In this document: piece after piece, positions 9,188 to 49,658 of the stretch
How positions within the stretch are numbered: the stretch's first letter is position 1
How the letters are laid out: each line of letters opens with the position of its first letter
Source: Escherichia coli
GTDB lineage: Bacteria > Pseudomonadota > Gammaproteobacteria > Enterobacterales > Enterobacteriaceae
Strand: one strand, 5' to 3'
Length of the DNA: 64,000 bases
Assembly (NCBI RefSeq): GCF_044647545.1
Contig: NZ_CP172818.1
Notes under the pieces: model-generated
Told to the model about the DNA's origin: nothing
Seen by the model: the letters and a program-made list of their open reading frames with translations, nothing else
Databases searched by the model: none
Made by a program: the position numbers and the translations under genes

Positions 9188-10195
9188 ATGAAGATAATCT
9201 GCAGATTATTATTGGCGATGGCATGTTTGTGGTTAACAAACATATCCTGGGCTACTGTTTGTGCAAATAGTACTGGCGTAGCAGAAGATGAACACTATGA
9301 TCTCTCAAATGTCTTTAATAGCACCAATAACCAGCCAGGGCAGATTGTTGTTTTACCGGAAAAATCCGGCTGGGTAGGTGTATCAGCAATTTGTCCACCC
9401 GGCACGCTGGTGAATTATACATACCGTAGTTATGTCACCAACTTTATTGTTCAGGAAACTATCGATAATTATAAATATATGCAATTAAATGATTATCTAT
9501 TAGGTGCGATGAGTCTGGTTGATAGCGTGATGGATATTCAATTCCCTCCGCAAAATTATATTCGTATGGGAACAGATCCTAACGTTTCGCAAAACCTTCC
9601 GTTCGGGGTGATGGATTCTCGTTTGATATTTCGTTTAAAGGTTATTCGTCCCTTTATTAACATGGTGGAGATCCCCAGACAGGTGATGTTTACCGTGTAT
9701 GTGACATCAACGCCTAACGATCCGTTGGTTACACCTGTTTATACCATTAGTTTTGGTGGCCGGGTTGAAGTACCGCAAAACTGCGAATTAAATGCCGGGC
9801 AAATTGTTGAATTTGATTTTGGTGATATCGGCGCATCGTTATTTAGTGCGGCAGGGCCGGGGAATCGACCAGCTGGTGTCATGCCGCAAACCAAGAGCAT
9901 TGCGATCAAATGTACGAATGTTGCTGCGCAGGCTTATTTAACAATGCGTCTGGAAGCCAGTGCCGTTTCTGGTCAGGCGATGGTGTCGGACAATCAGGAT
10001 TTAGGTTTTATTGTGGCCGATCAGAACGATACGCCGATCACGCCTAACGATCTCAATAGCGTTATTCCTTTCCGTCTGGATGCAGCTGCGGCAGCCAATG
10101 TCACACTTCGCGCCTGGCCTATCAGTATTACCGGTCAAAAACCGACCGAAGGGCCGTTTAGCGCGCTGGGGTATTTACGCGTCGATTATCAATGA
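9188..10195 (+). CDS. sfmH: fimbrial adhesin-like protein SfmH
   Basis: 335-aa ORF with signal peptide; exact start codon uncertain. Confidence 0.8.
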   Translation: MKIICRLLLAMACLWLTNISWATVCANSTGVAEDEHYDLSNVFNSTNNQPGQIVVLPEKSGWVGVSAICPPGTLVNYTYRSYVTNFIVQETIDNYKYMQLNDYLLGAMSLVDSVMDIQFPPQNYIRMGTDPNVSQNLPFGVMDSRLIFRLKVIRPFINMVEIPRQVMFTVYVTSTPNDPLVTPVYTISFGGRVEVPQNCELNAGQIVEFDFGDIGASLFSAAGPGNRPAGVMPQTKSIAIKCTNVAAQAYLTMRLEASAVSGQAMVSDNQDLGFIVADQNDTPITPNDLNSVIPFRLDAAAAANVTLRAWPISITGQKPTEGPFSALGYLRVDYQ

Positions 10196-11597: not shown

Positions 11598-11674
11598 GCG
11601 CCCTTAGCTCAGTTGGATAGAGCAACGACCTTCTAAGTCGTGGGCCGCAGGTTCGAATCCTGCAGGGCGCGCCA
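11598..11674 (+). tRNA. argU: tRNA-Arg (anticodon UCU), ending in CCA
   Basis: 77-nt sequence GCGCCCTTAGCTCAGTTGGATAGAGCAACGACCTTCTAAGTCGTGGGCCGCAGGTTCGAATCCTGCAGGGCGCGCCA; cloverleaf-compatible; recognised argU. Confidence 0.95.
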
Positions 11675-11689
11675 TTACAATTCAATCAG

Positions 11690-12853
11690 TTACGCCTTCT
11701 TTATATCCTCCATAATTCCAGAGTGGGACATATTTGGGACATTATCACCAAAAATGTCGTCTATTTTCCTCGCATGCTCTGTCAAATGATTAGGCGCAAG
11801 GTGAGCATACCTACGAACCATTTCTATGGACTCCCATCCGCCCATTTCCTGAAGCACTGATAATGGGACGCCTGACTGAATCAGCCAGCTTGCCCAGGTG
11901 TGTCTGAGGTCATGGAAACGGAAATCTTCAATTCCTGCACGACGACAAGCTGATAGCCATGATGTCTTGCTGTCGATGCGCATCTTCCTGACCGCAGGCG
12001 TTGATGTTCCATCTGCTCGCTTAGCCGCCTTGGTATGTACAAACACCCATTTGTGATGCTTGCCTATTTGATCACGCAACACTTTACAGGCGGTATCGTT
12101 CAGCGCCACACCAATGGCGCGGTTTGATTTGCTCTCTTCTGGATTCACCCAGGCAACTCGTCGCTGCATGTCGATTTGTTGCCATTCCAGATTTATGATG
12201 TTCGACTTTCTCAGACCAGTTGCCAGCGCAAACTTGACGACAGATTTCAGTGGTTCGGGGCACTCATCAATAAGGCGTTTTGCTTCCTCCTTTTCCAGCC
12301 ATCTGACTCGCTTGTTTCTGACCGCTGGTATCTTGATGACAGGCGCTTTTTCCAGCCACTTCCAGTCGCGTTCTGCAGCACGGAGAATGGCCTTTATCAT
12401 GGCAAGATGCTTTGCCTTTGTCTGAGTTGATACTGGCTTTGGTTCATAAACAGGCAGTTCTTTACCTTTCCTGATGGCGGCCTGAACTTTCTGTTTCCAT
12501 ATTTCTTTCGTCTTTCTGTTATGCATTCTGCTTACAGCAGAGTAAATCTTTGCCTCCGAGATATCTTTAAGCCTTATACCCTCAAAATGTTCAAGCCAGA
12601 ACTCAATCCGGCTTTTATCTGAATCGAGAGATTTTTTATCAGCTTTTTCCTCAAGCCATCTTAGGCAGGCCTCTTCAAAAGTGACATCAGGTAAATCCCC
12701 TAGCTTTTCTACTCGCCAGAGTTCTGCTTTTCGCTTGTCGTGCAACTCCTGAGCTTGCCGCTTGTCCTTTGTGCCAAGAGATTCCTTAATTCGTTTCCCG
12801 CCCGGGAGCGAATACGAGGCATACCATATTTCATTTCTGCGGAAGAGTGACAT
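11690..12853 (-). CDS. intD: prophage tyrosine integrase
   Basis: 387-aa ORF 15 bp downstream of the tRNA; C-terminal R..HxxR..Y catalytic region ([13 protein letters not shown]). Confidence 0.9.
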
Positions 12854-12972
12854 TTTCTTTCCTCTGTTATGCCATCACCCGCGCTCACCTGGACAGTATG
12901 CAGCGGAGACTGAAGCGCCGCAATGCAGGCTTGCCGTGTTGTGAGGTACCCGGATATTATCGTGAGGATGCG

Positions 12973-13311
12973 TCATCGCCATTGCTCCCCAAATACAAAA
13001 CCAATTTCAGCCAGTGCCTCGTCCATTTTTTCGATGAACTCCGGCACCATCTCGTCAAAACTCGCCATGTACTTTTCATCCCGCTCAACCACGACATAAT
13101 GCAGTCCTTCACGCTTCATACGCGGGTCATAGTTGGCAAAGTACCAGGCATCTTTTCGTGTCACCCACATGCTGTACTGCACCTGGGCCATGTAAGCCGA
13201 CTTTATGGCCTCGAAACCACCGAGCCGGAACTTCATGAAATCCCGGGAGGTACGAGTATTGCCGGAAGCGCGGGCTGTATCCGGATGCAGAGTCTTATCC
13301 GTGGAAATCAA
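12973..13311 (-). pseudogene. exoD: lambda exonuclease (Exo) C-terminal fragment
   Basis: 112-aa ORF whose sequence ([50 protein letters not shown]...GFVFGEQWR) corresponds to the C-terminal part of lambda Exo only. Confidence 0.7.
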
Positions 13312-13349
13312 ACGCGCACTACTGGCTGGTTACCAACCTGTATCAGAAC

Positions 13350-13562
13350 ATGCGGGCCAATGCGTTGACTGACGCGGAATTACGGCGCAAGGCTGCCGAT
13401 GAACTGTCCTGTATGACCGCACGAATTAACCGTGGTGAGGCTATACCTGAACCAGTAAAACAACTTCCTGTCATGGGCGGTAGACCTCTAAATCGTGCAC
13501 AGGCTCTGGCGAAGATCGCAGAAATCAAAGCTAAGTTTGGGCTGAAAGGAGCAAGGGTATGA
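13350..13562 (+). pseudogene. peaD: lambda replication protein P C-terminal fragment
   Basis: 70-aa ORF ending ...AEIKAKFGLKGARV, matching the end of lambda P; no N-terminal part present. Confidence 0.6.
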
Positions 13563-13716
13563 CGGGCAAAGAGGCAATTATTCATTACCTGGGGACTCAT
13601 AAGAAATTCTGTGCGCAGGACGTTGCCGCGGTAACAGGCGCAACGGTAATCTGATCTTACCCAGCAATAGTGGACACGCGGCTAAGTGAGTAAACTCTCA
13701 GTCAGAGGTGACTCAC

Positions 13717-14016
13717 ATGACAAAAACAGTATCAACCAGTAAAAAACCCCGTAAACAGCATTCGCCTGAATTTCGCAGTGAAGCCCTGAAGCTTGCTGAA
13801 CGCATCGGTGTTACTGCCGCAGCCCGTGAACTCAGCCTGTATGAATCACAACTCTACAACTGGCGCAGTAAACAGCAAAATCAGCAGACGTCTTCTGAAC
13901 GTGAACTGGAGATGTCTACCGAGATTGCACGTCTCAAACGCCAGCTGGCAGAACGGGATGAAGAGCTGGCTATCCTCCAAAAGGCCGCGACATACTTCGC
14001 GAAGCGCCTGAAATGA
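13717..14016 (+). CDS. insE: IS3 OrfA (transposase N-terminal, helix-turn-helix)
   Basis: 99 aa from [15 protein letters not shown]; recognised IS3 OrfA. Confidence 0.88.
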
Positions 14017-14879
14017 AGTATGTCTTTATTGAAAAACATCAGGCTGAGTTCAGCATCAAAGCAATGTGCCGCGTGCTCCGGGTGGCCCGCAGCGGCTGGT
14101 ATACGTGGTGTCAGCGGCGGACAAGGATAAGCACGCGTCAGCAGTTCCGCCAACACTGCGACAGCGTTGTCCTCGCGGCTTTTACCCGGTCAAAACAGCG
14201 TTACGGTGCCCCACGCCTGACGGATGAACTGCGTGCTCAGGGTTACCCCTTTAACGTAAAAACCGTGGCGGCAAGCCTGCGCCGTCAGGGACTGAGGGCA
14301 AAGGCCTCCCGGAAGTTCAGCCCGGTCAGCTACCGCGCACACGGCCTGCCTGTGTCAGAAAATCTGTTGGAGCAGGATTTTTACGCCAGTGGCCCGAACC
14401 AGAAGTGGGCAGGAGACATCACGTACTTACGTACAGATGAAGGCTGGCTGTATCTGGCAGTGGTCATTGACCTGTGGTCACGTGCCGTTATTGGCTGGTC
14501 AATGTCGCCACGCATGACGGCGCAACTGGCCTGCGATGCCCTGCAGATGGCGCTGTGGCGGCGTAAGAGGCCCCGGAACGTTATCGTTCACACGGACCGT
14601 GGAGGCCAGTACTGTTCAGCAGATTATCAGGCGCAACTGAAGCGGCATAATCTGCGTGGAAGTATGAGCGCAAAAGGTTGCTGCTACGATAATGCCTGCG
14701 TGGAAAGCTTCTTTCATTCGCTGAAAGTGGAATGTATCCATGGAGAACACTTTATCAGCCGGGAAATAATGCGGGCAACGGTGTTTAATTATATCGAATG
14801 TGATTACAATCGGTGGCGGCGGCACAGTTGGTGTGGCGGCCTCAGTCCGGAACAATTTGAAAACAAGAACCTCGCTTAG
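14013..14879 (+). CDS. insF: IS3 OrfB transposase (DDE catalytic domain; normally made as an OrfAB fusion by -1 frameshift)
   Basis: 288-aa ORF overlapping insE; recognised IS3 OrfB. Confidence 0.88.
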
Positions 14880-15189
14880 GCCTGTGTCCATATTACGTGG
14901 GTAGGATCAACCAGCATAAATCAGGCTGCGGCTAAAATGGCACGGGCAGGTCTTCTGGCTATCGAAGGTAAGGTCTGGCGAACGGTGTATTACCGGTTTG
15001 CTACCAGAGAAGAACGGGAAGGAAAGGTGAGCACGAATCTGATTTTTAAGGAGTGTCGCCAGAGTGCCGCGATGAAACGGGTATTGAGGGTATATAAAAG
15101 AACATCAATGGGTACACAATGATGAAACAGGTGAGTTGAGTTCAAACTGTAGTACAATTCTCTCCAGTTTGAACAGGAAAGAATATTCT

Positions 15190-15522
15190 ATGAACCCTTA
15201 TATTTATCTTGGTGGTGCAATACTTGCAGAGGTCATTGGTACAACCTTAATGAAGTTTTCAGAAGGTTTTACACGGTTATGGCCATCTGTTGGTACAATT
15301 ATTTGTTATTGTGCATCATTCTGGTTATTAGCTCAGACGCTGGCTTATATTCCTACAGGGATTGCTTATGCTATCTGGTCAGGAGTCGGTATTGTCCTGA
15401 TTAGCTTACTGTCATGGGGACTTTTCGGCCAACGGCTGGACCTGCCAGCCATTATAGGCATGATGTTGATTTGTGCCGGTGTGTTGGTTATTAATTTATT
15501 GTCACGAAGCACACCACATTAA
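15190..15522 (+). CDS. emrE: small multidrug resistance efflux transporter EmrE
   Basis: 110 aa from MNPYIYLGGAILAEVIGTTLMK, four transmembrane helices, conserved Glu in the first helix. Confidence 0.9.
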   Translation: MNPYIYLGGAILAEVIGTTLMKFSEGFTRLWPSVGTIICYCASFWLLAQTLAYIPTGIAYAIWSGVGIVLISLLSWGLFGQRLDLPAIIGMMLICAGVLVINLLSRSTPH

Positions 15523-15553
15523 AAATAATTTGTTTCTAAACGACTAAAATATG

Positions 15554-15586
15554 GAGGCTCTTATATTTATATGAGCCTCGTTTTAT
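15554..15586 (+). terminator. candidate rho-independent terminator after emrE
   Basis: GAGGCTC / GAGCCTC stem with AT-rich loop followed by GTTTTATGCTTTTT. Confidence 0.45.
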
Positions 15587-15778
15587 GCTTTTTGTTAATG
15601 TCTTTATTTTTTTATGTATTCTTTTGTGCTTTCAAGATTATGGCGTAAGAAAATTGCAATACGATTATTGTTGTATATTCAAGATAATGTGACCTTAATT
15701 GTCTTTTTAAATAAAAATTAAACAAAAATTATATCCCACCACTAAGGTTTATAAAAGCATACGTTAGCAGGTGTCACC

Positions 15779-17305
15779 ATGAAAAAAGCCATAGCATATA
15801 TGCGATTTTCATCACCAGGTCAGATGTCTGGCGACTCATTAAACCGACAGAGAAGACTTATTGCTGAATGGTTAAAGGTAAATAGTGATTATTATCTTGA
15901 TACCATAACATATGAAGATTTAGGATTAAGTGCATTCAAAGGAAAGCATGCACAATCAGGAGCTTTTTCGGAATTTTTAGATGCTATAGAGCATGGTTAT
16001 ATATTGCCAGGAACTACATTGTTAGTTGAAAGTCTGGACAGACTTTCAAGAGAAAAAGTCGGTGAAGCGATTGAACGTCTGAAATTGATTTTGAATCACG
16101 GTATTGATGTTATAACTCTTTGCGACAATACAGTCTATAATATTGACTCTTTGAATGAGCCATATTCATTAATAAAAGCCATACTTATAGCACAAAGGGC
16201 AAATGAAGAAAGCGAGATAAAGTCAAGTCGGGTTAAATTATCATGGAAGAAAAAACGGCAGGATGCACTGGAATCAGGTACGATTATGACGGCGTCTTGT
16301 CCGAGATGGCTCTCCTTAGATGACAAAAGAACGGCTTTTGTTCCAGACCCCGACAGGGTGAAAACTATTGAGCTAATTTTTAAACTCAGGATGGAAAGGC
16401 GCTCATTGAATGCAATAGCCAAGTATTTAAATGATCATGCTGTAAAGAATTTCTCAGGAAAAGAAAGTGCATGGGGACCTTCTGTAATTGAAAAATTATT
16501 AGCGAATAAAGCTCTGATAGGTATATGCGTACCTTCATATCGTGCAAGAGGTAAAGGAATAAGTGAAATCGCTGGCTATTATCCCAGAGTCATATCAGAT
16601 GATTTGTTTTACGCTGTACAGGAAATTCGGTTGGCACCTTTTGGTATTAGCAATAGTAGCAAAAATCCTATGTTGATAAATCTACTTCGAACAGTTATGA
16701 AGTGCGAGGCTTGTGGTAATACCATGATTGTTCATGCGGTATCTGGAAGTTTGCATGGCTATTATGTTTGTCCGATGAGAAGACTGCATCGATGTGACAG
16801 GCCATCAATAAAGAGAGATTTGGTTGATTATAATATCATTAATGAGTTGCTTTTTAATTGTAGTAAAATCCAACCAGTTGAAAACAAGAAAGATGCTAAT
16901 GAAACTTTAGAGTTGAAAATTATTGAGCTCCAGATGAAAATTAATAATTTAATTGCTGCATTATCTGTTGCGCCTGAAGTTACCGCTATAGCAGAAAAAA
17001 TCAGAGTATTAGATAAGGAATTACGAAGGGCTTCTGTATCATTAAAAACTTTGAAGAGTAAAGCGGTGAGTTCACTTGGTGATTTTCATGCTATTGACTT
17101 AACCAGTAAAAATGGGCGAGAGCTATGTCGTACACTTGCCTATAAAACATTCGAAAAAATCATAATCAATACAGATAATAAAACCTGTGATATCTATTTT
17201 ATGAATGGCATTGTTTTTAAACACTATCCTTTAATGAAAACAATATCCGCCCAGCAGGCGATAAGTACTCTCAAATATATGGTTGATGGTGAGGTTTATT
17301 TTTGA
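15779..17305 (+). CDS. ybcK: large serine recombinase family protein
   Basis: 508-aa ORF; N-terminal resolvase-like catalytic motif (AYMRFSSPGQ), central recombinase domain, Cys-rich zinc ribbon (CEACGN...CPMRRLHRCD), C-terminal coiled-coil-like region. Confidence 0.85.
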   Translation: MKKAIAYMRFSSPGQMSGDSLNRQRRLIAEWLKVNSDYYLDTITYEDLGLSAFKGKHAQSGAFSEFLDAIEHGYILPGTTLLVESLDRLSREKVGEAIERLKLILNHGIDVITLCDNTVYNIDSLNEPYSLIKAILIAQRANEESEIKSSRVKLSWKKKRQDALESGTIMTASCPRWLSLDDKRTAFVPDPDRVKTIELIFKLRMERRSLNAIAKYLNDHAVKNFSGKESAWGPSVIEKLLANKALIGICVPSYRARGKGISEIAGYYPRVISDDLFYAVQEIRLAPFGISNSSKNPMLINLLRTVMKCEACGNTMIVHAVSGSLHGYYVCPMRRLHRCDRPSIKRDLVDYNIINELLFNCSKIQPVENKKDANETLELKIIELQMKINNLIAALSVAPEVTAIAEKIRVLDKELRRASVSLKTLKSKAVSSLGDFHAIDLTSKNGRELCRTLAYKTFEKIIINTDNKTCDIYFMNGIVFKHYPLMKTISAQQAISTLKYMVDGEVYF

Positions 17306-17499
17306 GTAATAATCTTTTTTACGTCGTGCTATAGTAAGAAAGTGCAAGACAGAATTAATTATCTTTGACGAAACTTAATGGGTAATTACTTTGTTTGCTC
17401 CCACAAGCGAGTTTTGTACGGCTGTATTGGGGTAGTAAATGAGCTATACAATCTTAATCATTTGTTAGGTGAGAACTCTTGGTCGCAGATTCAAATACT

Positions 17500-17549
17500 G
17501 AAAATACGTGACAAATTATTATGAGCAAAATGGTGTATGTCACGTATTT
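17500..17549. repeat. 13-bp perfect inverted repeat pair (AAAATACGTGACA ... TGTCACGTATTTT) separated by 24 bp
   Basis: Seen directly in the ybcK-ybcL intergenic region. Confidence 0.6.
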
Positions 17550-17762
17550 TGAATGGTAGGTTAAAAAATAACACCGACTTTCGTAGGTATTACTAATAAT
17601 AAAGCAGAGTTTTTAGATAGTATCAATGTGCTTTGTGTATATTGTGGCAAATAATTGGGTTGCTGAGGGGTAGAATGTGATTGCTTTTGCATGAACACTT
17701 TATGCATAATGAGATAAAGGAATATCAAATAAAGAACGATAGGTCATAACAAAGAGGTTTTT

Positions 17763-18312
17763 ATGAAAACACTTATCGTTTCAACTGTATTGGCATTCAT
17801 AACATTTTCTGCGCAGGCTGCAGCATTTCAGGTCACTAGTAATGAAATAAAAACAGGAGAGCAACTTACAACGTCTCATGTCTTTCTCGATTTGGGTGTG
17901 AAGGTGGTAATACATCGCCCTCATTAACCTGGTCTGGTGTTCCTGAAGGTACCAAAAGCTTTGCCGTAACTGTATATGATCCAGATGCACCTACAGGCAG
18001 TGGTTGGTGGCATTGGACTGTTGTTAATATTCCAGCAACAGTAACATATTTTCCGTTGATGCAGGGAGACGTGATGGAACAAAACTGCCGACTGGTGCTG
18101 TTCAAGGCCGAAATGATTTTGGCTATGCTGGGTTTGGTGGCGCATGTCCTCCTAAAGGAGATAAACCACATCATTACCAGTTTAAAGTATGGGCTCTAAA
18201 AACTGAAAAGATTCCTGTAGATTCTAACTCCAGCGGAGCGTTAGTTGGTTATATGCTTAATGCTAATAAAATCGCAACCGCTGAGATAACACCAGTTTAT
18301 GAGATAAAGTAG
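17763..18312 (+). pseudogene. ybcL: periplasmic PEBP/UPF0098 family protein with two frame breaks in this assembly
   Basis: Signal peptide MKTLIVSTVLAFITFSAQA; the protein is recovered across three frames with shifts near 17884 (T-run) and 18054 (C-run); corrected length would be 183 aa. Confidence 0.7.
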
Positions 18313-18321
18313 GGTGAGAGT

Positions 18322-19119
18322 ATGCTGGCAAGAGGTAAGACTAACTTAAAGATCGAAGAAATACGGATGCATAAACATCATGAGATTCATAGGGTTAAGC
18401 CTCTTATGCCAGCTTTGTGTCGTATCCGTCAGGGAAAGAAAGTTATCAATTGGGAGACGCATACTTTAACTGTTGATAATAATCAAATAATATTATTTCC
18501 TTGTGGTTATGAATTTTATATTGAGAATTATCCTGAAGCAGGGCTTTATCTTGCAGAAATGCTTTACTTACCCATTGATTTAATTGAGAGTTTCCAAAAA
18601 CTTTATACGGTAACTGATCAAATACGTAACAAAACAAGTTTCTTTTTACCTCAGAATCCTGAGTTAATATATTGTTGGGAGCAACTAAAAACATCTGTTT
18701 CCCGAGGCTTCTCAACTAAAATTCAGGAGCACTTAGCAATGGGCGTTCTACTTTCGTTAGGAGTGAATCATGTTAATCATTTACTTTTATCATATAGTAA
18801 ACAATCATTGATAAGTCGTTGTTATAACCTGCTGCTATCCGAACCCGGCACAAAATGGACAGCAAACAAGGTTGCTCGATATCTCTACATTTCTGTTTCT
18901 ACATTACATCGCCGTCTAGCAAGCGAGGGGGTAAGTTTCCAAAGTATACTGGACGATGTGAGGTTAAATAATGCGTTGTCTGCTATACAAACGACGGTAA
19001 AACCTATAAGCGAGATTGCCAGAGAAAATGGTTATAAGTGTCCTTCTCGTTTTACTGAAAGATTTCATAATCGTTTTAATATAACACCAAGAGAGATAAG
19101 AAAAGCTTCCAGAGAGTAA
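18322..19119 (+). CDS. ybcM: AraC-family transcriptional regulator
   Basis: 265-aa ORF with C-terminal AraC-type helix-turn-helix. Confidence 0.85.
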
Positions 19120-19235
19120 AAGTGTTTTAAGAAGGAGCAATTCTATCGATTTTGATTTGCGATAATCAACTCGCCATAATCATGTCATCGGAGCCTGAAC
19201 AACTCCGGTGACTTCTGCGCTAAACGGGGACGTTT

Positions 19236-19337
19236 ATGCGCACACACAATCCAAACTCTCTTCTCCCTCCACAGATGCAGAAATGCACCTGCGATATATT
19301 GTATCCAGCGTTTGACCTCTGCGGAGGTGAAGCGTGA
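19236..19337 (+). CDS. ylcH: small prophage ORF (33 aa)
   Basis: Short [36 protein letters not shown] ending 4 bp into ybcN; small size, low certainty. Confidence 0.35.
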
Positions 19338-19789
19338 ATCTCCCACAAGATGGCATCAAATTACATCGCGGTAACTTCACCGCTATCGGTCGGCAGATCC
19401 AGCCTTATCTGGAGGAGGGCAAATGCTTTCGCATGGTGCTTAAACCGTGGCGTGAGAAACGCAGTCTTTCCCAGAATGCACTCAGCCACATGTGGTACAG
19501 CGAAATCAGTGAATACCTCATCAGCAGGGGTAAAACGTTCGCTACTCCAGCTTGGGTAAAAGATGCTCTCAAACACACATATCTCGGTTATGAAACCAAA
19601 GACCTGGTTGATGTCGTAACCGGTGATATCACCACTATCCAGTCGTTACGCCATACCTCCGATCTTGATACCGGAGAGATGTATGTCTTCCTGTGTAAGG
19701 TTGAAGCCTGGGCGGTGAATATTGGCTGCCACCTGACTATTCCGCAGAGCTGCGAGTTCCAGCTGCTCCGCGACAAGCAGGAGGCGTAA
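19334..19789 (+). CDS. ybcN: NinB-like prophage protein
   Basis: 151-aa ORF with apparent GTG start; position ahead of ninE/rusA in a lambda nin-like region. Confidence 0.8.
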
Positions 19790-19959
19790 TGGCTACACCG
19801 CTTATTCGTGTCATGAACGGACACATCTACAGAGTACCAGATCGTCGTAAGCGTAAACCGGAGCTGAAGCCTTCCGAAATACCAACACTGCTCGGATATA
19901 CCGCCAGCCTGGTTGATAAAAAATGGTTGCGACTGGCAGCAAGGAGGAATCATGGCTGA
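19789..19959 (+). CDS. ninE: NinE-family prophage protein (56 aa)
   Basis: [26 protein letters not shown]... overlapping ybcN stop; below ORF-track size cutoff. Confidence 0.6.
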   Translation: MATPLIRVMNGHIYRVPDRRKRKPELKPSEIPTLLGYTASLVDKKWLRLAARRNHG

Positions 19960-20242
19960 TTTGAGAAAAGCAGCGCGTAGTCGGGAATGCCAGGTAAGAA
20001 TCCCTGGCGTATGTAATGGCAACCCTGAAACGTCTGTACTGGCACATATCCGGCTGACTGGATTGTGCGGCACCGGTACCAAACCGCCAGACCTGATTGC
20101 CACCATTGCATGTTCTGCCTGCCACGACGAAATCGACCGCCGCACACATTTTGTCGATGCTGCATATGCAAAAGAATGCGCGCTGGAAGGTATGGCGAGA
20201 ACACAGGTTATCTGGCTGAAAGAGGGGGTTATTAAGGCGTGA
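19952..20242 (+). CDS. ybcO: prophage protein YbcO (Cys-rich, 96 aa)
   Basis: 96 aa from [10 protein letters not shown]; conserved nin-region position. Confidence 0.75.
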
Positions 20243-20601
20243 ATACCTACAGCATCACATTACCCTGGCCTCCGAGCAATAATCGCTATTACCGCCATAA
20301 TCGCGGGCGCACGCACGTCAGCGCAGAGGGGCAGGCATACCGCGATAACGTCGCCCGAATCATTAAAAACGCAATGCTGGATATCGGCCTGGCTATGCCT
20401 GTGAAAATCCGCATTGAGTGCCACATGCCGGATCGCCGTCGCCGTGACCTGGATAATCTGCAAAAAGCCGCTTTTGACGCACTCACTAAAGCAGGTTTCT
20501 GGCTGGATGATGCTCAGGTCGTTGATTACCGCGTTGTGAAGATGCCTGTTACCAAAGGTGGGAGGCTGGAACTGACCATCACCGAAATGGGGAATGAATG
20601 A
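20239..20601 (+). CDS. rusA: Holliday junction resolvase RusA
   Basis: 120-aa [21 protein letters not shown]...; recognised RusA. Confidence 0.9.
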
Positions 20602-20738
20602 TGTTTGAGTTTTATATGGCAGAACGTCTTCGCCACCGCTGGGGGCGTCTGCGCTTATATCGTTTCCCCGGTTCTGTTTTGACCGATTACCGAATACTGA
20701 AGAATTACGCCAAAACCCTGACAGGAGCAGGAGTATGA
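20598..20738 (+). CDS. ylcG: small prophage ORF (46 aa)
   Basis: [26 protein letters not shown]... overlapping rusA stop; verified codon by codon. Confidence 0.45.
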
Positions 20739-20823
20739 AGTCAGAGATAACAATCAACTAATACTGTTTCGTTGATTTTTGCTTGTAATTGGCGTTCTGG
20801 TCTGATTTTTGTGGAGTAAGTTG

Positions 20824-21207
20824 ATGCGTGATATTCAGATGGTTCTTGAGCGTTGGGGAGCGTGGGCGGCTAATAATCATGAAGATGTGACCTGGTCGTC
20901 CATTGCCGCCGGTTTTAAGGGATTAATTACTTCAAAAGTAAAATCTCGCCCACAATGTTGTGACGATGACGCGATGATCATTTGCGGGTGCATGGCCCGT
21001 CTGAAAAAGAACAACAGCGATTTGCATGATTTATTGGTGGACTATTATGTCGGCGGCATGACTTTTATGGCGCTTGCACGTAAGCATGGGCGATCTGATT
21101 GTTGGGTTGGCAGGATGCTTCAGAAAGCTGAGGGCGTAGTGGAGGGTATGCTGATGGTGTTGGATCTCCGATTGGAGATGGATGTCGTTGTTAATAACTC
21201 TAATTAA
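20824..21207 (+). CDS. quuD: Q-family late-gene antiterminator
   Basis: 127 aa from [18 protein letters not shown]; immediately upstream of a hairpin-rich regulatory region. Confidence 0.8.
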
Positions 21208-21229
21208 TATGCCAATTGTTTACTAAAAA

Positions 21230-21390
21230 TTATTAAAAATGGGGCGTTGAGACGCCCCCAAAAATAAAGGGTAATATATAACAGAAGGTTTATATAGTTA
21301 GAAGCAAGGTTGTGCTTCTAAAGGAAGTGGCTTGAGGGAGCCACTTATATGTTGGGGAGGCAACGCCTCCCGCAACATATCTTTTTCGTA
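21230..21390 (+). promoter_or_regulatory. late regulatory region downstream of Q (candidate pR'/qut and short-transcript terminator)
   Basis: Several GC hairpins (GGGGCG..CGCCCC; AAGTGGC..GCCACTT; GGGAGGC AAC GCCTCCC followed by ...CTTTTT). Confidence 0.3.
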
Positions 21391-21458
21391 ATCAGATTAG
21401 AACTGGTAAACCAGACCTACAGCAACGATGTCATCAGTGCTTACACCGAGTGCTTTAG

Positions 21459-22653
<1,195 letters not shown>

Positions 22654-23683
22654 TTAGTGAAGTCATTTTTGTCAAGCAGGTTGATTTTGTAATCAACGAA
22701 AGTAGACATATTTTTGTTGAAGTAATAGGTTGCACCTACATCAACATATTTGACTAAGTCCTGATCGCCCCATACTCCAAGATCCTTACCTTTAGATTGC
22801 AGGTAAGCAACGGACGGACGCAGACCGAAATCGAACTGATATTGTGCAACAGCTTCGAAGTTTTGGGCTTTATTAGCAACGAAGTGATCAGCAAATACAG
22901 TCATATTCTGGGTTTCAGAATAGGTAGTGGCCAGGTAAATGTTGTTAGCGTCATATTTCAGACCTGCGGCCCAAACTTCTGCATTTTTACCGGAAGCAAA
23001 TACTTCAGGAAGAACTTTCCCTGCATTAACTTGAGTGTCGGTACGATCAGATTTCGCATAAGTTGCACCGATACCGAATCCTTCGTATTCATAGGTAGCA
23101 GAGAAACCGAAGCCATCACCGTTACCTTCAGTGTAGTTATCGAAATCGCTACGATCGTTTTTGCCTTGGTACTGAATCGCAAAATCAAGACCATCAACCA
23201 GGCCAAGAAATCATAGTTACGGTAGGTTGCAACACCGTTGGTACGACCATTCATGAAGTTGTCAGCGGAAGCCCAGGAATCGCCACCCCATTCAACTAAC
23301 ATATCGGTATAAGCTGCGGCATCATAAGCAACACCGTAGTTACGGCCATAGTCAAATGACCACTCGTTATATTTCAAACCGGCGAAGGTTAAACGGGTTT
23401 TTTCCTGGTTTTCACCTTCGGGCTTGCTGGCGTCGAGGTTGTATTCAAACTGACCAAAACCAGTCAGTTCGCTGGTGATTTGGGTTTCACCTTTGAAGCC
23501 AAGACGGGCATAAGTAGTATCACCATCATCTGCATCATTAGAGGAGAAGTAGTGCTTAGCATTAACTTTCCCGTACAGATCCAGCTTGTTACTGTCTTTA
23601 TTATAAATTTCAGCTGCCTGAGCAGACATCGCCATTAGTACTGATGCAGCTACAGCAGAAATTGCCACTGTTAATTTTTTCAT
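22654..23683 (-). pseudogene. nmpC: OmpC-family outer-membrane porin, truncated at the 3' end by IS5 and carrying an internal single-base frame break near 23205
   Basis: Signal peptide [23 protein letters not shown]; porin sequence reads YRNYDF then shifts frame, then continues in frame to the IS5 junction (last residues EGANKSLI come from IS5). Confidence 0.8.
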
Positions 23684-24258
23684 CGTGAGCCCTTTTTTTG
23701 AACTATTATTAAAAAATGATGTCACTGCGCGATAAATATTCATCTAATCAATGTGATTATTTCAAGATGTAAGTTTTGGTTTCTCGTTTGATTTGTGAAG
23801 TAGATCTCTATTTTTATCTGAACTTTTTTCTATCGAATCCTATTCATGGCTCTTGGCTGAATAAAAATAAATCTATTAGCCAATTTATATTAACGGCTGT
23901 TATTTATAAGTGCTCTATAATTTGAAGGTTCAATTTAAACCGGCTAAAAATAACACTGGAAATTATTTTTTGGTTATTTGTTGAGATTTGCTTATGTATT
24001 TGTAGTGGTGTTTTCAATACTCGGTAGCATTCTCTCAAATATCATTTAGTGGTTTACGTACGTAAAAAATTGGTTATGCTGTTAAGAGTGGTTACTTCGT
24101 CACACAGCTTAAACCCGCCGTCGAGCGGGTTTTTCCATTTTTTGAGTCTCGATATTAGCTGATAACCCAATACCTGAGTTATTCACTGACTCCGAGTCTG
24201 TTACGTTTCGTAGTATTCCCTCAATTTACACCCATCCGTTATTTGCGGAGGTGAGGCT

Positions 24259-43801: not shown

Positions 43802-45025
43802 ATGAAAAAAATCGCGCTTATTATCGGCAGCATGATTGCGGGCGGTATTATTTCTGCGGCAGGTTTTACCTGGTTTGCAAAGGCTGAACCGCCCGCAGAA
43901 AAAACGCCGACCGCAGAACGTAAAATCTTATTCTGGTACGACCCGATGTATCCCAATACGCGGTTCGATAAACCAGGTAAATCGCCGTTTATGGATATGG
44001 ATCTGGTGCCGAAATATGCCGATGAAGAGAGTTCTGCGTCTGGTGTACGCATTGACCCGACCCAGACGCAGAATCTGGGGGTGAAAACGGCGACCGTCAC
44101 GCGCGGGCCGCTGACTTTTGCCCAGAGTTTCCCGGCGAATGTCAGTTACAACGAGTATCAGTATGCCATTGTGCAGGCTCGCGCTGCCGGGTTTATCGAT
44201 AAGGTGTATCCGCTTACCGTGGGCGATAAAGTACAAAAGGGCACACCGCTTCTCGACCTGACCATTCCCGACTGGGTGGAAGCGCAGAGTGAGTATTTAC
44301 TGCTGCGCGAAACCGGCGGTACGGCGACCCAGACTGAAGGCATTCTTGAGCGGCTGAGACTGGCGGGAATGCCGGAGGCGGATATTCGCCGCCTGATCGC
44401 CACGCAAAAAATCCAGACTCGCTTTACGCTCAAAGCGCCCATTGATGGCGTGATCACCGCGTTTGATCTGCGCGCGGGAATGAATATCGCCAAAGATAAC
44501 GTGGTCGCGAAAATTCAGGGTATGGACCCGGTGTGGGTCACTGCTGCGATCCCGGAGTCCATCGCCTGGCTGGTGAAAGATGCCTCGCAGTTTACGCTCA
44601 CCGTTCCGGCGCGACCTGATAAAACACTCACCATTCGCAAATGGACGCTGCTACCCGGCGTGGATGCCGCGACCCGCACGCTGCAACTGCGTCTGGAAGT
44701 CGACAACGCCGACGAGGCGCTAAAACCGGGCATGAACGCCTGGTTGCAACTCAATACCGCCAGCGAACCGATGCTGCTCATTCCGTCACAGGCGCTGATT
44801 GATACCGGCAACGAACAGCGGGTGATTACCGTTGATGCTGACGGGCGCTTTGTACCGAAACGCGTTGCCGTTTTCCAGGCATCGCAAGGCGTCACCGCGT
44901 TACGCTCTGGTCTGGCGGAAGGTGAAAAGGTGGTTTCCAGCGGCCTGTTCCTGATTGATTCTGAAGCCAATATTTCTGGCGCACTGGAGCGGATGCGCTC
45001 TGAAAGTGCTACCCATGCGTATTGA
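43802..45025 (+). CDS. cusB: membrane fusion protein CusB
   Basis: 407-aa ORF; operon position. Confidence 0.9.
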   Translation: MKKIALIIGSMIAGGIISAAGFTWFAKAEPPAEKTPTAERKILFWYDPMYPNTRFDKPGKSPFMDMDLVPKYADEESSASGVRIDPTQTQNLGVKTATVTRGPLTFAQSFPANVSYNEYQYAIVQARAAGFIDKVYPLTVGDKVQKGTPLLDLTIPDWVEAQSEYLLLRETGGTATQTEGILERLRLAGMPEADIRRLIATQKIQTRFTLKAPIDGVITAFDLRAGMNIAKDNVVAKIQGMDPVWVTAAIPESIAWLVKDASQFTLTVPARPDKTLTIRKWTLLPGVDAATRTLQLRLEVDNADEALKPGMNAWLQLNTASEPMLLIPSQALIDTGNEQRVITVDADGRFVPKRVAVFQASQGVTALRSGLAEGEKVVSSGLFLIDSEANISGALERMRSESATHAY

Positions 45026-45036
45026 GGGAATAACCA

Positions 45037-48000
45037 ATGATTGAATGGATTATTCGTCGCTCGGTGGCGAACCGTTTTCTGGTGCTGATGGGCGCGTTGT
45101 TTCTGAGCATCTGGGGCACCTGGACCATCATTAACACGCCAGTGGATGCGCTGCCGGATCTCTCTGATGTACAGGTGATTATTAAAACCAGCTATCCCGG
45201 TCAGGCACCGCAAATCGTTGAAAATCAGGTGACTTATCCGCTAACCACCACCATGTTGTCGGTACCTGGCGCGAAGACAGTGCGCGGTTTCTCGCAGTTT
45301 GGCGACTCTTATGTGTATGTCATTTTTGAAGATGGCACCGATCCGTACTGGGCGCGCTCGCGGGTGCTGGAGTACCTCAATCAGGTACAGGGGAAGCTGC
45401 CTGCGGGAGTCAGCGCCGAGCTGGGGCCAGACGCCACGGGCGTTGGCTGGATCTATGAATATGCACTGGTAGATCGCAGCGGTAAGCACGATCTGGCCGA
45501 TTTACGCTCATTGCAGGACTGGTTTCTCAAATATGAGCTAAAAACCATCCCTGACGTTGCGGAAGTGGCGTCGGTGGGCGGTGTGGTGAAAGAGTATCAG
45601 GTGGTTATCGATCCTCAGCGCCTGGCGCAGTATGGCATCAGTCTCGCCGAAGTAAAAAGCGCGCTGGATGCTTCAAACCAGGAAGCGGGCGGTTCGTCGA
45701 TCGAACTGGCGGAAGCGGAATATATGGTGCGCGCCAGCGGATATCTGCAAACGCTCGACGACTTTAATCACATCGTTTTAAAAGCCAGTGAAAATGGCGT
45801 GCCCGTTTATCTGCGTGATGTTGCGAAGGTCCAGGTTGGCCCGGAGATGCGCCGGGGCATTACCGAACTGAACGGCGAAGGCGAAGTGGCGGGCGGGGTG
45901 GTGATCCTGCGTTCCGGCAAAAACGCCCGTGAAGTGATCGCTGCCGTGAAGGACAAACTGGAAACGCTGAAAAGCAGTCTGCCGGAAGGCGTGGAGATAG
46001 TTACAACATACGATCGCAGCCAGCTCATTGACCGCGCCATTGACAACCTCAGTGGCAAGTTGCTGGAAGAGTTTATTGTGGTGGCGGTAGTCTGTGCGCT
46101 GTTTCTCTGGCATGTGCGCTCGGCGCTGGTGGCGATTATTTCGTTGCCGCTGGGGTTGTGTATTGCTTTTATTGTCATGCACTTTCAGGGACTGAACGCC
46201 AATATTATGTCGCTGGGCGGTATTGCGATTGCCGTCGGGGCGATGGTCGATGCCGCTATCGTCATGATCGAGAATGCGCATAAACGGCTGGAAGAGTGGC
46301 AGCACCAGCATCCTGACGCCACGCTGGATAATAAAACGCGCTGGCAGGTGATTACCGATGCATCTGTTGAAGTGGGGCCGGCGCTGTTTATCAGTCTGCT
46401 GATTATCACGCTGTCGTTTATCCCGATCTTCACCCTGGAAGGGCAGGAAGGTCGTCTGTTTGGCCCGCTGGCGTTCACCAAAACCTATGCGATGGCGGGC
46501 GCGGCGCTACTGGCGATCGTAGTGATCCCGATCCTGATGGGCTACTGGATCCGTGGCAAAATTCCGCCGGAAAGCAGTAACCCGCTCAATCGCTTTTTGA
46601 TTCGTGTTTATCATCCGCTGTTGCTGAAAGTACTGCACTGGCCGAAAACCACGCTGTTGGTGGCAGCGCTTTCGGTGCTGACGGTACTCTGGCCGCTCAA
46701 TAAAGTTGGCGGGGAATTTTTACCGCAGATCAATGAAGGCGACTTGTTGTATATGCCATCGACGCTGCCGGGGATTTCCGCAGCAGAGGCGGCGAGCATG
46801 CTGCAAAAAACCGACAAGCTGATTATGAGCGTACCGGAAGTGGCGCGGGTATTTGGCAAAACCGGGAAAGCGGAAACCGCCACCGATTCAGCTCCACTGG
46901 AGATGGTAGAAACGACTATCCAGCTTAAGCCACAAGATCAGTGGCGGCCAGGCATGACGATGGACAAAATCATTGAGGAACTGGATAACACCGTGCGTCT
47001 GCCGGGGCTGGCGAATCTGTGGGTGCCGCCAATTCGTAACCGTATCGATATGCTCTCGACTGGCATTAAAAGCCCTATCGGCATTAAAGTTTCCGGCACT
47101 GTGCTGGCGGATATCGACACGATGGCGGAGCAAATTGAAGAAGTGGCGCGAACGGTGCCAGGCGTAGCTTCTGCTCTTGCCGAGCGGCTGGAAGGTGGGC
47201 GCTATATCAACGTTGAGATTAACCGTGAAAAAGCCGCGCGTTACGGTATGACGGTGGCGGATGTGCAATTGTTTGTGAAATCTGCGGTGGGCGGGGCGAT
47301 GGTTGGCGAAACGGTGGAAGGGATTGCCCGTTATCCAATTAATCTGCGTTATCCGCAAAGCTGGCGCGATAGCCCGCAGGCACTGCGCCAGTTGCCGATC
47401 CTCACGCCGATGAAGCAGCAAATCACCCTGGCAGACGTGGCCGACGTTAAAGTCTCTACCGGACCGTCGATGCTGAAAACCGAGAATGCGCGCCCGACGA
47501 GCTGGATTTATATCGATGCCCGCGATCGTGACATGGTGTCGGTGGTTCACGATCTGCAAAAAGCGATAGCTGAAAAAGTGCAGTTAAAACCGGGCACCAG
47601 CGTGGCATTCTCCGGGCAGTTCGAGCTACTGGAGCGCGCCAACCATAAGCTGAAACTGATGGTGCCGATGACGCTGATGATCATCTTCGTGCTGTTGTAC
47701 CTGGCGTTCCGTCGGGTGGGCGAAGCGTTGCTGATTATCAGCAGCGTACCGTTTGCGCTGGTGGGCGGCATCTGGTTGCTGTGGTGGATGGGCTTTCATC
47801 TTTCCGTGGCGACGGGCACCGGTTTTATTGCCCTTGCCGGGGTCGCCGCCGAATTTGGCGTGGTGATGCTGATGTATTTACGTCACGCCATAGAGGCCGA
47901 GCCGTCGTTGAATAATCCGCAAACATTCAGCGAGCAGAAGCTGGATGAGGCGTTGTATCACGGCGCGGTCCTGCGCGTGCGCCCGAAAGCGATGACGGTG

Positions 48001-48180
48001 GCGGTGATTATCGCTGGTCTGCTGCCGATTCTGTGGGGAACGGGAGCAGGTTCAGAGGTGATGAGCCGGATTGCCGCGCCGATGATTGGCGGCATGATCA
48101 CCGCGCCTTTGCTATCGCTGTTTATTATCCCGGCGGCGTATAAGCTGATGTGGCTGCACCGACATCGGGTACGGAAATAA
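45037..48180 (+). CDS. cusA: RND-family copper/silver efflux pump CusA
   Basis: 1047-aa ORF, 12-transmembrane RND architecture. Confidence 0.93.
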
Positions 48181-48281
48181 AAGCAGGATACCCCGTTTAA
48201 CCGTGTGGATTGTGTCTTGCGACGATGGGCACTAAATGTTAAAAGGTGCCCCTCAACAAAAAAGACACACAGGGGAAAGGC

Positions 48282-49658
48282 GTGAAAAACGCGTCAACCG
48301 TATCGGAAGATACTGCGTCGAATCAAGAGCCGACGCTTCATCGCGGATTACATAACCGTCATATTCAACTGATTGCGCTGGGTGGCGCAATTGGTACTGG
48401 TCTGTTTCTTGGCATTGGCCCGGCGATTCAGATGGCGGGTCCGGCTGTATTGCTGGGCTACGGCGTCGCCGGGATCATCGCTTTCCTGATTATGCGCCAG
48501 CTTGGCGAAATGGTGGTTGAGGAGCCGGTATCCGGTTCATTTGCCCACTTTGCCTATAAATACTGGGGACCGTTTGCGGGCTTCCTCTCTGGCTGGAACT
48601 ACTGGGTAATGTTCGTGCTGGTGGGAATGGCAGAGCTGACCGCTGCGGGCATCTATATGCAGTACTGGTTCCCGGATGTTCCAACGTGGATTTGGGCTGC
48701 CGCCTTCTTTATTATCATCAACGCCGTTAACCTGGTGAACGTGCGCTTATATGGCGAAACCGAGTTCTGGTTTGCGCTGATTAAAGTGCTGGCGATCATC
48801 GGTATGATCGGCTTTGGCCTGTGGCTGCTGTTTTCTGGGCACGGCGGCGAGAAAGCCAGTATCGATAACCTCTGGCGCTACGGTGGTTTTTTTGCCACCG
48901 GCTGGAATGGGCTGATTTTGTCGCTGGCGGTGATTATGTTCTCCTTCGGCGGGCTGGAGCTGATTGGGATTACTGCCGCTGAAGCGCGCGCTCCGGAAAA
49001 AAGCATCCCGAAAGCAGTGAATCAGGTGGTGTATCGCATCCTGCTGTTTTATATCGGTTCACTGGTGGTTTTACTGGCACTCTATCCGTGGGTGGAAGTG
49101 AAATCCAACAGTAGCCCGTTTGTGATGATTTTCCATAATCTCGACAGCAACGTGGTAGCCTCTGCGCTGAACTTCGTCATTCTGGTAGCATCATTATCGG
49201 TGTATAACAGCGGGGTTTACTCTAACAGCCGCATGCTGTTTGGCCTTTCTGTGCAGGGTAATGCGCCGAAGTTTTTGACTCGCGTCAGCCGTCGCGGTGT
49301 GCCGATTAACTCGCTGATGCTTTCCGGAGCGATCACTTCGCTGGTGGTGTTAATCAACTATCTGCTGCCGCAAAAAGCGTTTGGTCTGCTGATGGCGCTG
49401 GTGGTAGCAACGCTGCTGTTGAACTGGATTATGATCTGCCTGGCGCATCTTCGTTTTCGTGCTGCGATGCGACGTCAGGGACGTGAAACACAGTTTAAGG
49501 CGCTGCTTTATCCGTTCGGCAACTATCTCTGCATTGCCTTCCTCGGCATGATTTTGCTGCTGATGTGCACGATGGATGATATGCGCTTGTCAGCGATTCT
49601 GCTGCCGGTGTGGATTGTATTCCTGTTTGTAGCATTTAAAACGCTGCGTCGGAAATAA
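48282..49658 (+). CDS. pheP: phenylalanine-specific permease PheP (APC family)
   Basis: 458 aa from an apparent GTG start (VKNASTVSED...); ORF-track N-terminal extension rejected. Confidence 0.85.
   Translation: MKNASTVSEDTASNQEPTLHRGLHNRHIQLIALGGAIGTGLFLGIGPAIQMAGPAVLLGYGVAGIIAFLIMRQLGEMVVEEPVSGSFAHFAYKYWGPFAGFLSGWNYWVMFVLVGMAELTAAGIYMQYWFPDVPTWIWAAAFFIIINAVNLVNVRLYGETEFWFALIKVLAIIGMIGFGLWLLFSGHGGEKASIDNLWRYGGFFATGWNGLILSLAVIMFSFGGLELIGITAAEARAPEKSIPKAVNQVVYRILLFYIGSLVVLLALYPWVEVKSNSSPFVMIFHNLDSNVVASALNFVILVASLSVYNSGVYSNSRMLFGLSVQGNAPKFLTRVSRRGVPINSLMLSGAITSLVVLINYLLPQKAFGLLMALVVATLLLNWIMICLAHLRFRAAMRRQGRETQFKALLYPFGNYLCIAFLGMILLLMCTMDDMRLSAILLPVWIVFLFVAFKTLRRK

Follow-up and report, generated by a model that had tools for sequence, protein, structure and literature searches.

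A stretch of 64,000 nucleotides of Escherichia coli DNA (NCBI RefSeq assembly GCF_044647545.1, contig NZ_CP172818.1; the whole stretch is hereafter called the window) contains a cryptic lambdoid prophage of the DLP12 type, in which an AT-rich block carrying emrE, ylcJ, ybcK, ybcL and ybcM lies between a remnant of ren and the nin-like gene ybcN. One of these genes, ybcK, encodes a large serine recombinase (LSR), and a reading made from the sequence alone had proposed that the block is a nested, once-mobile module whose recombinase could still act on a local site. Comparison with other loci did not bear out a single module moved by this enzyme: the units of the block assort separately, a search for att-like direct or inverted repeats over positions 14900-19500 rendered only short, chance-level matches, and the junctions do not depend on YbcK. 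Judged by its breakpoints, the block is made up of at least three independently assorting units rather than of one insertion, and it is probably an ordinary mosaic accessory (moron) region of the lambdoid phages of the DLP12/phage 82 type, placed between ren and ninB (ybcN). The features of the region are collected in Table 1.

The breakpoints against other loci split the block into emrE (15113-15530), ylcJ-ybcK (15531 to ~17343, with weak residual homology up to ~17385), the spacer after ybcK (17344-17611) and ybcL-ybcM (17612-19149), and these parts were found in several combinations. In locus L002, ren is followed by three small genes and ybcN; in O157, ren-emrE-ybcK leads straight to ybcN; elsewhere ren-emrE-ybcK is followed by P22AR plus BstA, by an alpha/beta hydrolase or by ybcL-ybcM; and the phage at locus L008, which is without ren, emrE and ybcK, bears P22AR-HEPN cargo. 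The spacer is missing from the other ybcK phages and from a remnant at the fliE locus that is described below.

The whole block is also carried by viable phages. PhiR34_1, PhiR68_2 and PhiR70_1 match it at 97.7-97.8% identity and 100% coverage; they share the order ren-emrE-ybcK-ybcL-ybcM-ybcN with the window, but are complete phages, while the window holds an IS-riddled remnant. PhiR34_1 shows the full DLP12 gene order, including an integrase at its end of the same length as DLP12 intD. The pair emrE-ybcK is joined to different cargo in other phages, for example PhiR47_2, D2, 3W and Turner, and PhiR47_2 has an annotated integrase at the prophage end plus an excisionase. Related prophages with these genes in a contiguous phage backbone had been named by the sequence-only reading itself as evidence against its proposal, and this is largely what was found; the viable phages moreover have a tyrosine integrase of their own.

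Other parts of that reading stood. An AT-rich block without a counterpart in lambda does lie between the ren remnant and ybcN: the GC content over ~15200-19200 is 0.32-0.40, against ~0.50 on either side, and records of lambda-type phages matched the region at ren only. The genes can be called cargo, as had been suggested, since their base composition is foreign and neither lambda nor certain close relatives (L002, L008) have them. The edges of the block were displaced, however, from the proposed 15123 and 19333 to 15095/15113 on the left and 19149 on the right. Homology to phage ren begins at 14909, L002, which has no block, ceases to match at 15094, and the last ~28 nt of the ren remnant are unlike ren of phages lacking emrE; positions 15113-15189 are part of the emrE unit and common to the fliE locus, while 19150-19333 are conserved phage backbone, present also in phages without the block. 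Of the genes listed, emrE, the 508-aa ybcK and the AraC-type ybcM were as described, but ybcL is not intact, two 1-base deletions breaking its frame. In view of the gene, GC and lambda comparisons, the original observation therefore holds apart from ybcL and the exact edges.

The distribution of the units was surveyed in 5,426 complete E. coli genomes. The full block was present in 668 of them and the ybcK unit in 1,425, nearly complete in 1,399; in 1,394 of these 1,399, which carry most of the unit, ren, emrE, ylcJ and ybcK are contiguous. No second genomic context for ybcK was seen in the 5,426 genomes, nor was a divergent paralogue found by a more sensitive search of them. ybcK thus shows no independent mobility and never stands alone in E. 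coli. Likewise, ren-emrE-ybcK was found in all 80 ybcK loci of IMG/VR wherever the contig extends that far. A partial ybcK match, H70, was set aside as an uninformative, IS1-mediated deletion.

In 2,627 genomes emrE is joined directly to ybcL. All of these joins map to the fliE/porin/yedK locus and match the window at 83-90% identity. The island found there is collinear with DLP12, carrying emrE, then ybcL-ybcM with 186 bp of backbone, then the stretch beyond quuD and finally the porin gene. This island (L001 8001-11859; L024) corresponds to window positions 15113-15530, 17612-19336, 21129-21438 and 22654-24020, at 80-92% identity; the only genes left in it are emrE, ybcL, ybcM and one for an nmpC-like porin, with ybcK and all phage genes gone. 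It is a stripped prophage remnant that retained its cargo and lost ybcK along with the phage genes. Since the cargo and the porin gene were kept while ybcK went with the phage genes, ybcK behaves as a phage gene. The fliE locus of strain HH45 encodes EmrE and YbcM proteins identical to those of the K-12-like DLP12, a finding suggestive of gene conversion from one locus to the other.

The fliE locus also bears on another explanation, according to which ylcJ-ybcK (15531-17611) or emrE-ylcJ-ybcK (~15100-17343) is a nested serine recombinase element that integrated via YbcK and has since become fixed. Relative to the fliE arrangement of emrE and ybcL, ylcJ-ybcK is a clean, discrete 2,081-bp presence/absence (15531-17611), four unrelated bases standing in its place; YbcK is intact with its catalytic residues complete; its relatives are solitary genes at the borders of accessory modules in unrelated phages and plasmids; and the context of one of them (L020, below) is arranged as integration into a gene with a replacement end would leave it. 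An element of this kind should nevertheless have constant ends, whereas the right end of the ybcK unit lies at 17343, at +65, at ~+112 or at 17611, and positions 17344-17611 are absent from every other ybcK phage. A second context with a matching empty site should also exist, but none appeared in the 5,426 genomes, where 1,394 of the 1,399 carrying most of the ybcK unit had the contiguous ren-emrE-ybcK order. No empty site of at least 95% identity was found, and an artificial emrE-ybcL junction used as a query matched only the fliE-locus arrangement; with these 83-90% identical joins as the sole matches, a recent empty site for ylcJ-ybcK was rejected. The sites resembling att that had been anticipated at 15123-15190 and 19120-19333 were not found there, the former interval being part of the emrE unit and the latter mostly backbone. 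Around four YbcK homologue loci the repeats were again short, chance-level matches with no conserved flanking motif, and what the flanks of the homologues have in common ends 68 bp upstream of the gene; no inverted or direct repeats were found. Moreover, the sequence downstream of ybcK is hypervariable (pi 0.17-0.39), and the fliE locus is deletion-ridden, which makes loss of ybcK there as likely as its gain here. Integration of a nested element, in its narrowed form an old insertion of ylcJ-ybcK between emrE and ybcL, is for these reasons unlikely, the clean presence/absence being the one argument for it. Tn4451 with TnpX and SCCmec with Ccr are small elements moved by LSRs; the ~2.3-kb emrE-ybcK unit resembles them in placing a resistance-type gene beside an LSR, but for ybcK no terminal att sites, circular form, second insertion site or empty target was found.

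Directly after ybcK the phages carry different genes. This slot was surveyed in 80 IMG/VR loci with ybcK, 81 sequences being compared, and the sequence between ybcK and the ybcN promoter-like site fell into twelve clusters: eight gene sets, one near-empty deletion form and three IS-disrupted forms. The gene sets are ybcL-ybcM, an alpha/beta hydrolase, a pair of 90- and 105-aa proteins, and five in which a truncated P22AR-domain ORF is followed by BstA or by a protein of 260, 168, 118 or 83 aa (representatives L033, L030, L027, L073, L034, L036 and L065, within L025-L104). BstA was confirmed by PADLOC (4e-121) and was the only alternative cargo that PADLOC matched, the block's own proteins giving no match; the hydrolase was the only non-BstA cargo tested to match NCBIfam. 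For the cargo proteins of 260 (Cys-rich), 168, 118, 105, 90 and 83 aa, neither PADLOC nor NCBIfam has a matching model; they are candidates for unknown defence or exclusion genes. In the related phage PhiR26_1, PD-lambda-1 is annotated beside ren.

Whatever its type, the cargo ends a few bases before the sequence TTGATT-N17-CATAAT, at which the phage 82 record X92588 annotates a putative -35/-10 upstream of orf33 and orf151; the right junction lies 2 bp before this -35. The phage 82 fragment itself starts inside the 3′-end of ybcM and has its annotated promoter at the junction. A slot bounded in this way might be produced if YbcK, like an integron integrase, captured and swapped cassettes at a site right behind ybcK. 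In keeping with this, at least eight gene sets directly follow ybcK in the 81 sequences, all of them are bounded on the right at one nucleotide, and the recombinase is under purifying selection. However, the ybcK-less phages L002 and L008 use the identical right junction, which therefore does not depend on YbcK; the left junctions vary by cargo type (+38, +65 or ~+112 nt after the ybcK stop), with residual homology that fades gradually and shows no core end; and the left and right junctions share no motif. The truncated P22AR ORF common to most types points instead to a single join in an ancestor, after which homologous exchange took place further downstream. As the junctions do not depend on YbcK, we hold cassette capture by this enzyme to be very improbable.

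Two further observations concern the sequences next to ybcK. In most ybcK phages, the ORF directly after the gene is ~105 aa long and has the C-terminal P22AR domain only (L005 6509-6826, L109 9478-9801), while the version in the ybcK-less phage L008 (5555-6163) has 202 aa; the emrE-ybcK unit therefore seems to have displaced the 5′ half of the P22AR gene. In O104:H4 (L007 4282-5254), a deletion with a 3-bp overlap at its junction joins emrE (window 15379) to ybcK (16520), so that both genes are lost; it has the look of an ordinary illegitimate deletion and not of site-specific recombination.

The YbcK protein was analysed by profile and alignment. It matches the Pfam families Resolvase (2e-18), Recombinase (5e-14) and Zn_ribbon_recom (2e-7), and falls into phrog_95 (integrase; 4e-120) of PHROGs. 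A profile search matched the C-terminal domain of the A118 integrase (3.6e-15 over positions 188-473), and the YxRxSxxxQ and LDRLSR motifs align with the catalytic domain of the TP901-1 integrase; a single-sequence search of PDB gave no match. The order of domains is catalytic domain, recombinase domain, and zinc ribbon with an embedded coiled coil. R9, S11, D87, R88, R91, E144 and four zinc-ribbon Cys residues are invariant in an alignment of 25 sequences. The catalytic serine, the loss of which had been named as a reason to abandon the sequence-only reading, is therefore kept, together with the rest of the active site. Across 65 haplotypes, pi in ybcK was 0.053 at third codon positions versus 0.010 at first and second positions. 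The spacer upstream of the gene showed near neutral diversity and the downstream sequence was hypervariable, which led us to reject a conserved non-coding site beside ybcK. By every sequence criterion, ybcK is a working gene of the LSR family. In the literature searched, no functional study of YbcK was found; ybcK is reported in a sabinene-tolerance study.

Alternatively, ybcK might be left over from the integration module of another phage, inert and decaying towards a pseudogene. It does sit in a cryptic prophage stripped of most genes, and in K-12 a Rho-dependent terminator upstream of ybcK blocks transcription into the gene (PMC4150792). The selection data contradict this idea: between pairs of six alleles dN/dS is 0.04-0.11 at dS values of up to 0.18, and in 1,397 of the 1,423 genomes with ybcK at least 80% of its length is covered. 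In addition, all 80 IMG/VR copies match residues 1-508, the gene is found in viable phages, and every catalytic residue is kept. That ybcK is a decaying relic is thus scarcely credible. Neither does it occupy the position of an integration module, since it is internal, between ren and ninB, and it is intD that lies beside tRNA-Arg. YbcK has the same domain order, Ser nucleophile and Arg/Asp/Glu set as the serine integrases of A118/LI, TP901-1, phiC31 and Bxb1, but its similarity to the solved integrases is remote, and it differs from them in not being at the prophage edge, in having no identified attP/attB and in belonging to a phage with a tyrosine integrase.

Relatives of YbcK with 41-61% identity are found in other prophages and in plasmids. 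They lie between the replication genes and Q in a lambdoid contig (in its nin region) and in a Pantoea prophage, the latter with a tyrosine integrase at the prophage end, so that the LSR is an additional gene there; as the final gene, following those for tail-fibre assembly, in prophages of Yersinia, Atlantibacter, Erwinia and Ewingella; in a Citrobacter region that resembles a plasmid or an ICE; and between unrelated accessory clusters in plasmids of Duffyella and Pantoea (Erwiniaceae). The solitary relatives considered were those at loci L011/L110-L112 (Atlantibacter), L009, L016, L022, L021, L107 and L108. The Atlantibacter homologue (59% identical) adjoins the tmRNA gene as the last gene of its prophage, and 123 bp past it there is a candidate att core of 12 nt. 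A role as the integrase of that prophage was rejected; at the other end, 30 kb away, there is a tyrosine integrase with a putative excisionase, which makes the serine recombinase an extra gene. A role as a tail-fibre or shufflon invertase, considered for the relatives that follow tail-fibre genes and for one beside Shufflon_N, was dropped, as flanking inverted repeats were not found. Two homologues in unrelated phages share the gene and 68 bp upstream, nothing more. In the lambdoid contig L020, the YbcK homologue (60%), a KGG gene and a DinI gene lie between two 229-bp copies (9623-9851 and 12609-12831; 82.5% identical) of the 5′-end of a nin gene encoding DUF1367. This is the only homologue context that resembles integration into a gene with a replacement end, and the layout fits either that or a mosaic join. 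In the late region of the Atlantibacter prophage that carries this homologue, a 78-aa ORF (L111 8379-8615) has an Acb2/Tad1-hairpin Pfam match; Acb2/Tad1 is a family of anti-defence sponge proteins.

One could go further and suppose that YbcK and its enterobacterial relatives form a distinct class of LSRs which are not the integrases of their phages and are selected as accessory genes on plasmids and in the moron slots of temperate phages that already possess a tyrosine integrase. We consider this improbable; if true, their role could be to drive the exchange of neighbouring cargo or defence genes between phages, or to make packageable multimers, or alternatively to provide a back-up integration route or to attack competing elements.

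The reading of the block as a mosaic moron region has certain points against it. It does not explain why a recombinase without a known substrate should be under strong purifying selection. The att sites of LSRs are short and weakly symmetric, and could have gone unseen as repeats. The clean 2,081-bp difference from the fliE locus could represent an old insertion of a discrete element instead of a deletion. Finally, the promoter-like sequences at the unit starts and the hairpin with a U-rich tract after emrE are consensus matches, and shuffled sequence is expected to hold as many promoter-like sites as the block does.

Under the mosaic reading, the block would be a stack of separately acquired and exchanged units (emrE, ylcJ-ybcK and ybcL-ybcM). 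The emrE unit would have a promoter-like leader of its own and be followed by a terminator-like hairpin, and ybcL-ybcM is one of at least eight alternative sets in the sub-slot between ybcK and the ybcN promoter-like site. We infer that ordinary phage mosaicism, and not YbcK, joined and swapped the units: illegitimate joins came first, and homologous exchange followed, with ren/emrE/ybcK as the conserved left flank and the ybcN promoter region as the conserved right one. EmrE, a cation efflux pump, YbcL, a periplasmic PEBP protein, and YbcM, a regulator, would serve the host as lysogenic-conversion cargo, while YbcK, a complete LSR at a position within the early rightward operon of lambda, would be a selected phage gene, neither host cargo nor phage integrase. 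Morons of lambdoid phages were defined for HK97 and HK022, and lom, bor and rexAB are examples in lambda. The block is like them in lying between backbone genes, being variably present in close relatives and having a deviant base composition, and it too has putative promoter- and terminator-like elements at the edges of its units; it differs in being a stack of several units and in including a site-specific recombinase, which is not typical moron content.

Table 1. Positions in the window of the block's genes, of the sequences between them and of the bordering phage genes
Feature	Positions	Strand	Description
ren 3′ remnant	14937..15122	+	From the ORF list; severed from the 5′ part by IS3
emrE unit	15113..15530	+	Promoter-like 5′ region plus coding sequence; delimited by homology to the fliE-locus remnant L001 (91.9%)
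emrE coding sequence	15190-15522	+	110 aa; full-length match to EmrE in PDB (1e-68); phrog_1395, QacE
Palindromic hairpin and U-rich tract	15554..15593	+	Follows emrE closely, within the left end of the ybcK unit; fold -13.8 kcal/mol, z -2.9
ylcJ small ORF	15571..15721	+	Frameshifted near 15613 relative to the K-12-like copy
ybcK	15779-17305	+	Intact, 508 aa; travelling unit 15531 to ~17343/17385
Spacer	17344..17611	+	268 bp; only in the ybcL-ybcM (DLP12) arrangement; from breakpoint comparison
ybcL	17763..18312	+	Periplasmic PEBP/RKIP-like protein; frame broken by two 1-base deletions in T-runs
ybcM	18322..19119	+	AraC/XylS-type regulator, 265 aa; zero differences from the protein of the K-12-like copy
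Backbone after block	19150..19333	+	Promoter-like TTGATT-N17-CATAAT (19152-19180) and 33-codon ORF overlapping the start of ybcN
ybcN	19334..19789	+	NinB/Orf family, phrog_72 (2e-52); first nin-like gene, right bound of the slot

The prophage as a whole spans positions 11690-23743 and adjoins a tRNA gene at 11598-11671, which is tRNA-Arg according to the K-12-like record and gave the sole Rfam match, in the flank. Its gene order is intD, remnants of exo and P, IS3 within ren, emrE, ylcJ, ybcK, ybcL and ybcM, followed by ybcN, ninE, ybcO, rusA, ylcG, quuD, and IS5 within the porin gene nmpC. A K-12-like genome (L004) is collinear with the window, at 97.2% identity over 13 kb, with IS3 and IS5 at identical sites; the 2.8% divergence is patchy, being dense at 21000-21250 and 22750-23500. 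The chromosomal flank (45000-49000), on the other hand, matches ST648-like strains, FDAARGOS_497 among them, at 100% identity. FDAARGOS_497 has an intact prophage at the same place, with cargo other than that of the window, yet its ybcK allele is 100% identical to the window's. The prophage therefore looks recombinant, since it shares the K-12 IS sites and diverges from K-12 in patches, while its flank and ybcK allele are those of FDAARGOS_497. Compared with DLP12 of K-12 (renD to ybcN), the window thus has the same gene order and the same positions of IS3 in ren and IS5 in nmpC, but ybcL and ylcJ are frameshifted, EmrE bears the substitution F78L and ybcK is the FDAARGOS_497 allele.

EmrE is identified as an SMR transporter by its full-length match to PDB chains, F78L being its one substitution relative to K-12. 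In the 65 haplotypes, diversity in emrE was far below that of its neighbours (pi 0.010, falling to 0.001 over the 120 bp at 15217-15336); set against 0.053 at the third codon positions of ybcK, this suggests a recent sweep or homogenisation of the unit. The hairpin and U-rich tract after emrE match the terminator consensus and are most simply read as a terminator. ylcJ is annotated as frameshifted in FDAARGOS_497 too.

In ybcL, alignment with the K-12-like and fliE-locus copies placed the deletions near 17882 and 18052. They leave a 54-aa ORF (17763-17927); otherwise the gene is nearly identical to that of K-12. It is either a real pseudogene or the product of homopolymer sequencing errors. 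The intact K-12-like YbcL has the Pfam PBP domain (4e-42) and equals PDB 1FUX; the intact PBP domain behind a signal peptide that marks a PEBP/RKIP protein is lacking in the twice-broken frame of the window. YbcM has the domains HTH_18 (2.8e-16) and HTH_AraC (1.6e-3) and an N-terminal ExsA_N-like domain (9.5e-4), as expected of an AraC-type regulator. The prophage copy of YbcL (L004 8870-9421) differs from the fliE-locus copy (L001 8579-9130) at six residues, including V99T, which would be residue 78 if the signal peptide consists of the first 21 residues. Position 78 is reportedly the sole residue difference between the non-suppressive YbcL of K-12 and the neutrophil-suppressive YbcL of uropathogenic E. 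coli (UPEC). The residue that separates the fliE-locus copy from the prophage copy falls at what we take to be this functional difference. If the residue is right, the two YbcL 'variants' would be paralogous loci and not alleles. A review that deals with the K-12/UPEC difference in YbcL does not name the residue (PMC4810123).

The genes and the block are already known: they are named in the K-12 RefSeq annotation, the structures of EmrE and YbcL have been solved, and complete phages carrying the block are in GenBank. What the comparison adds is a hotspot between ren and ninB in this phage group, at which efflux, host-interaction and anti-phage genes (BstA; PD-lambda-1 as annotated in a related phage) replace one another, several family-less cargo proteins of 83-260 aa being candidates for new defence genes. 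A stripped copy of the cargo is also found at the fliE locus in nearly half of the E. coli genomes. Lastly, a catalytically complete LSR that selection maintains in about one quarter of E. coli genomes poses a tractable question, and may offer a new recombinase tool.

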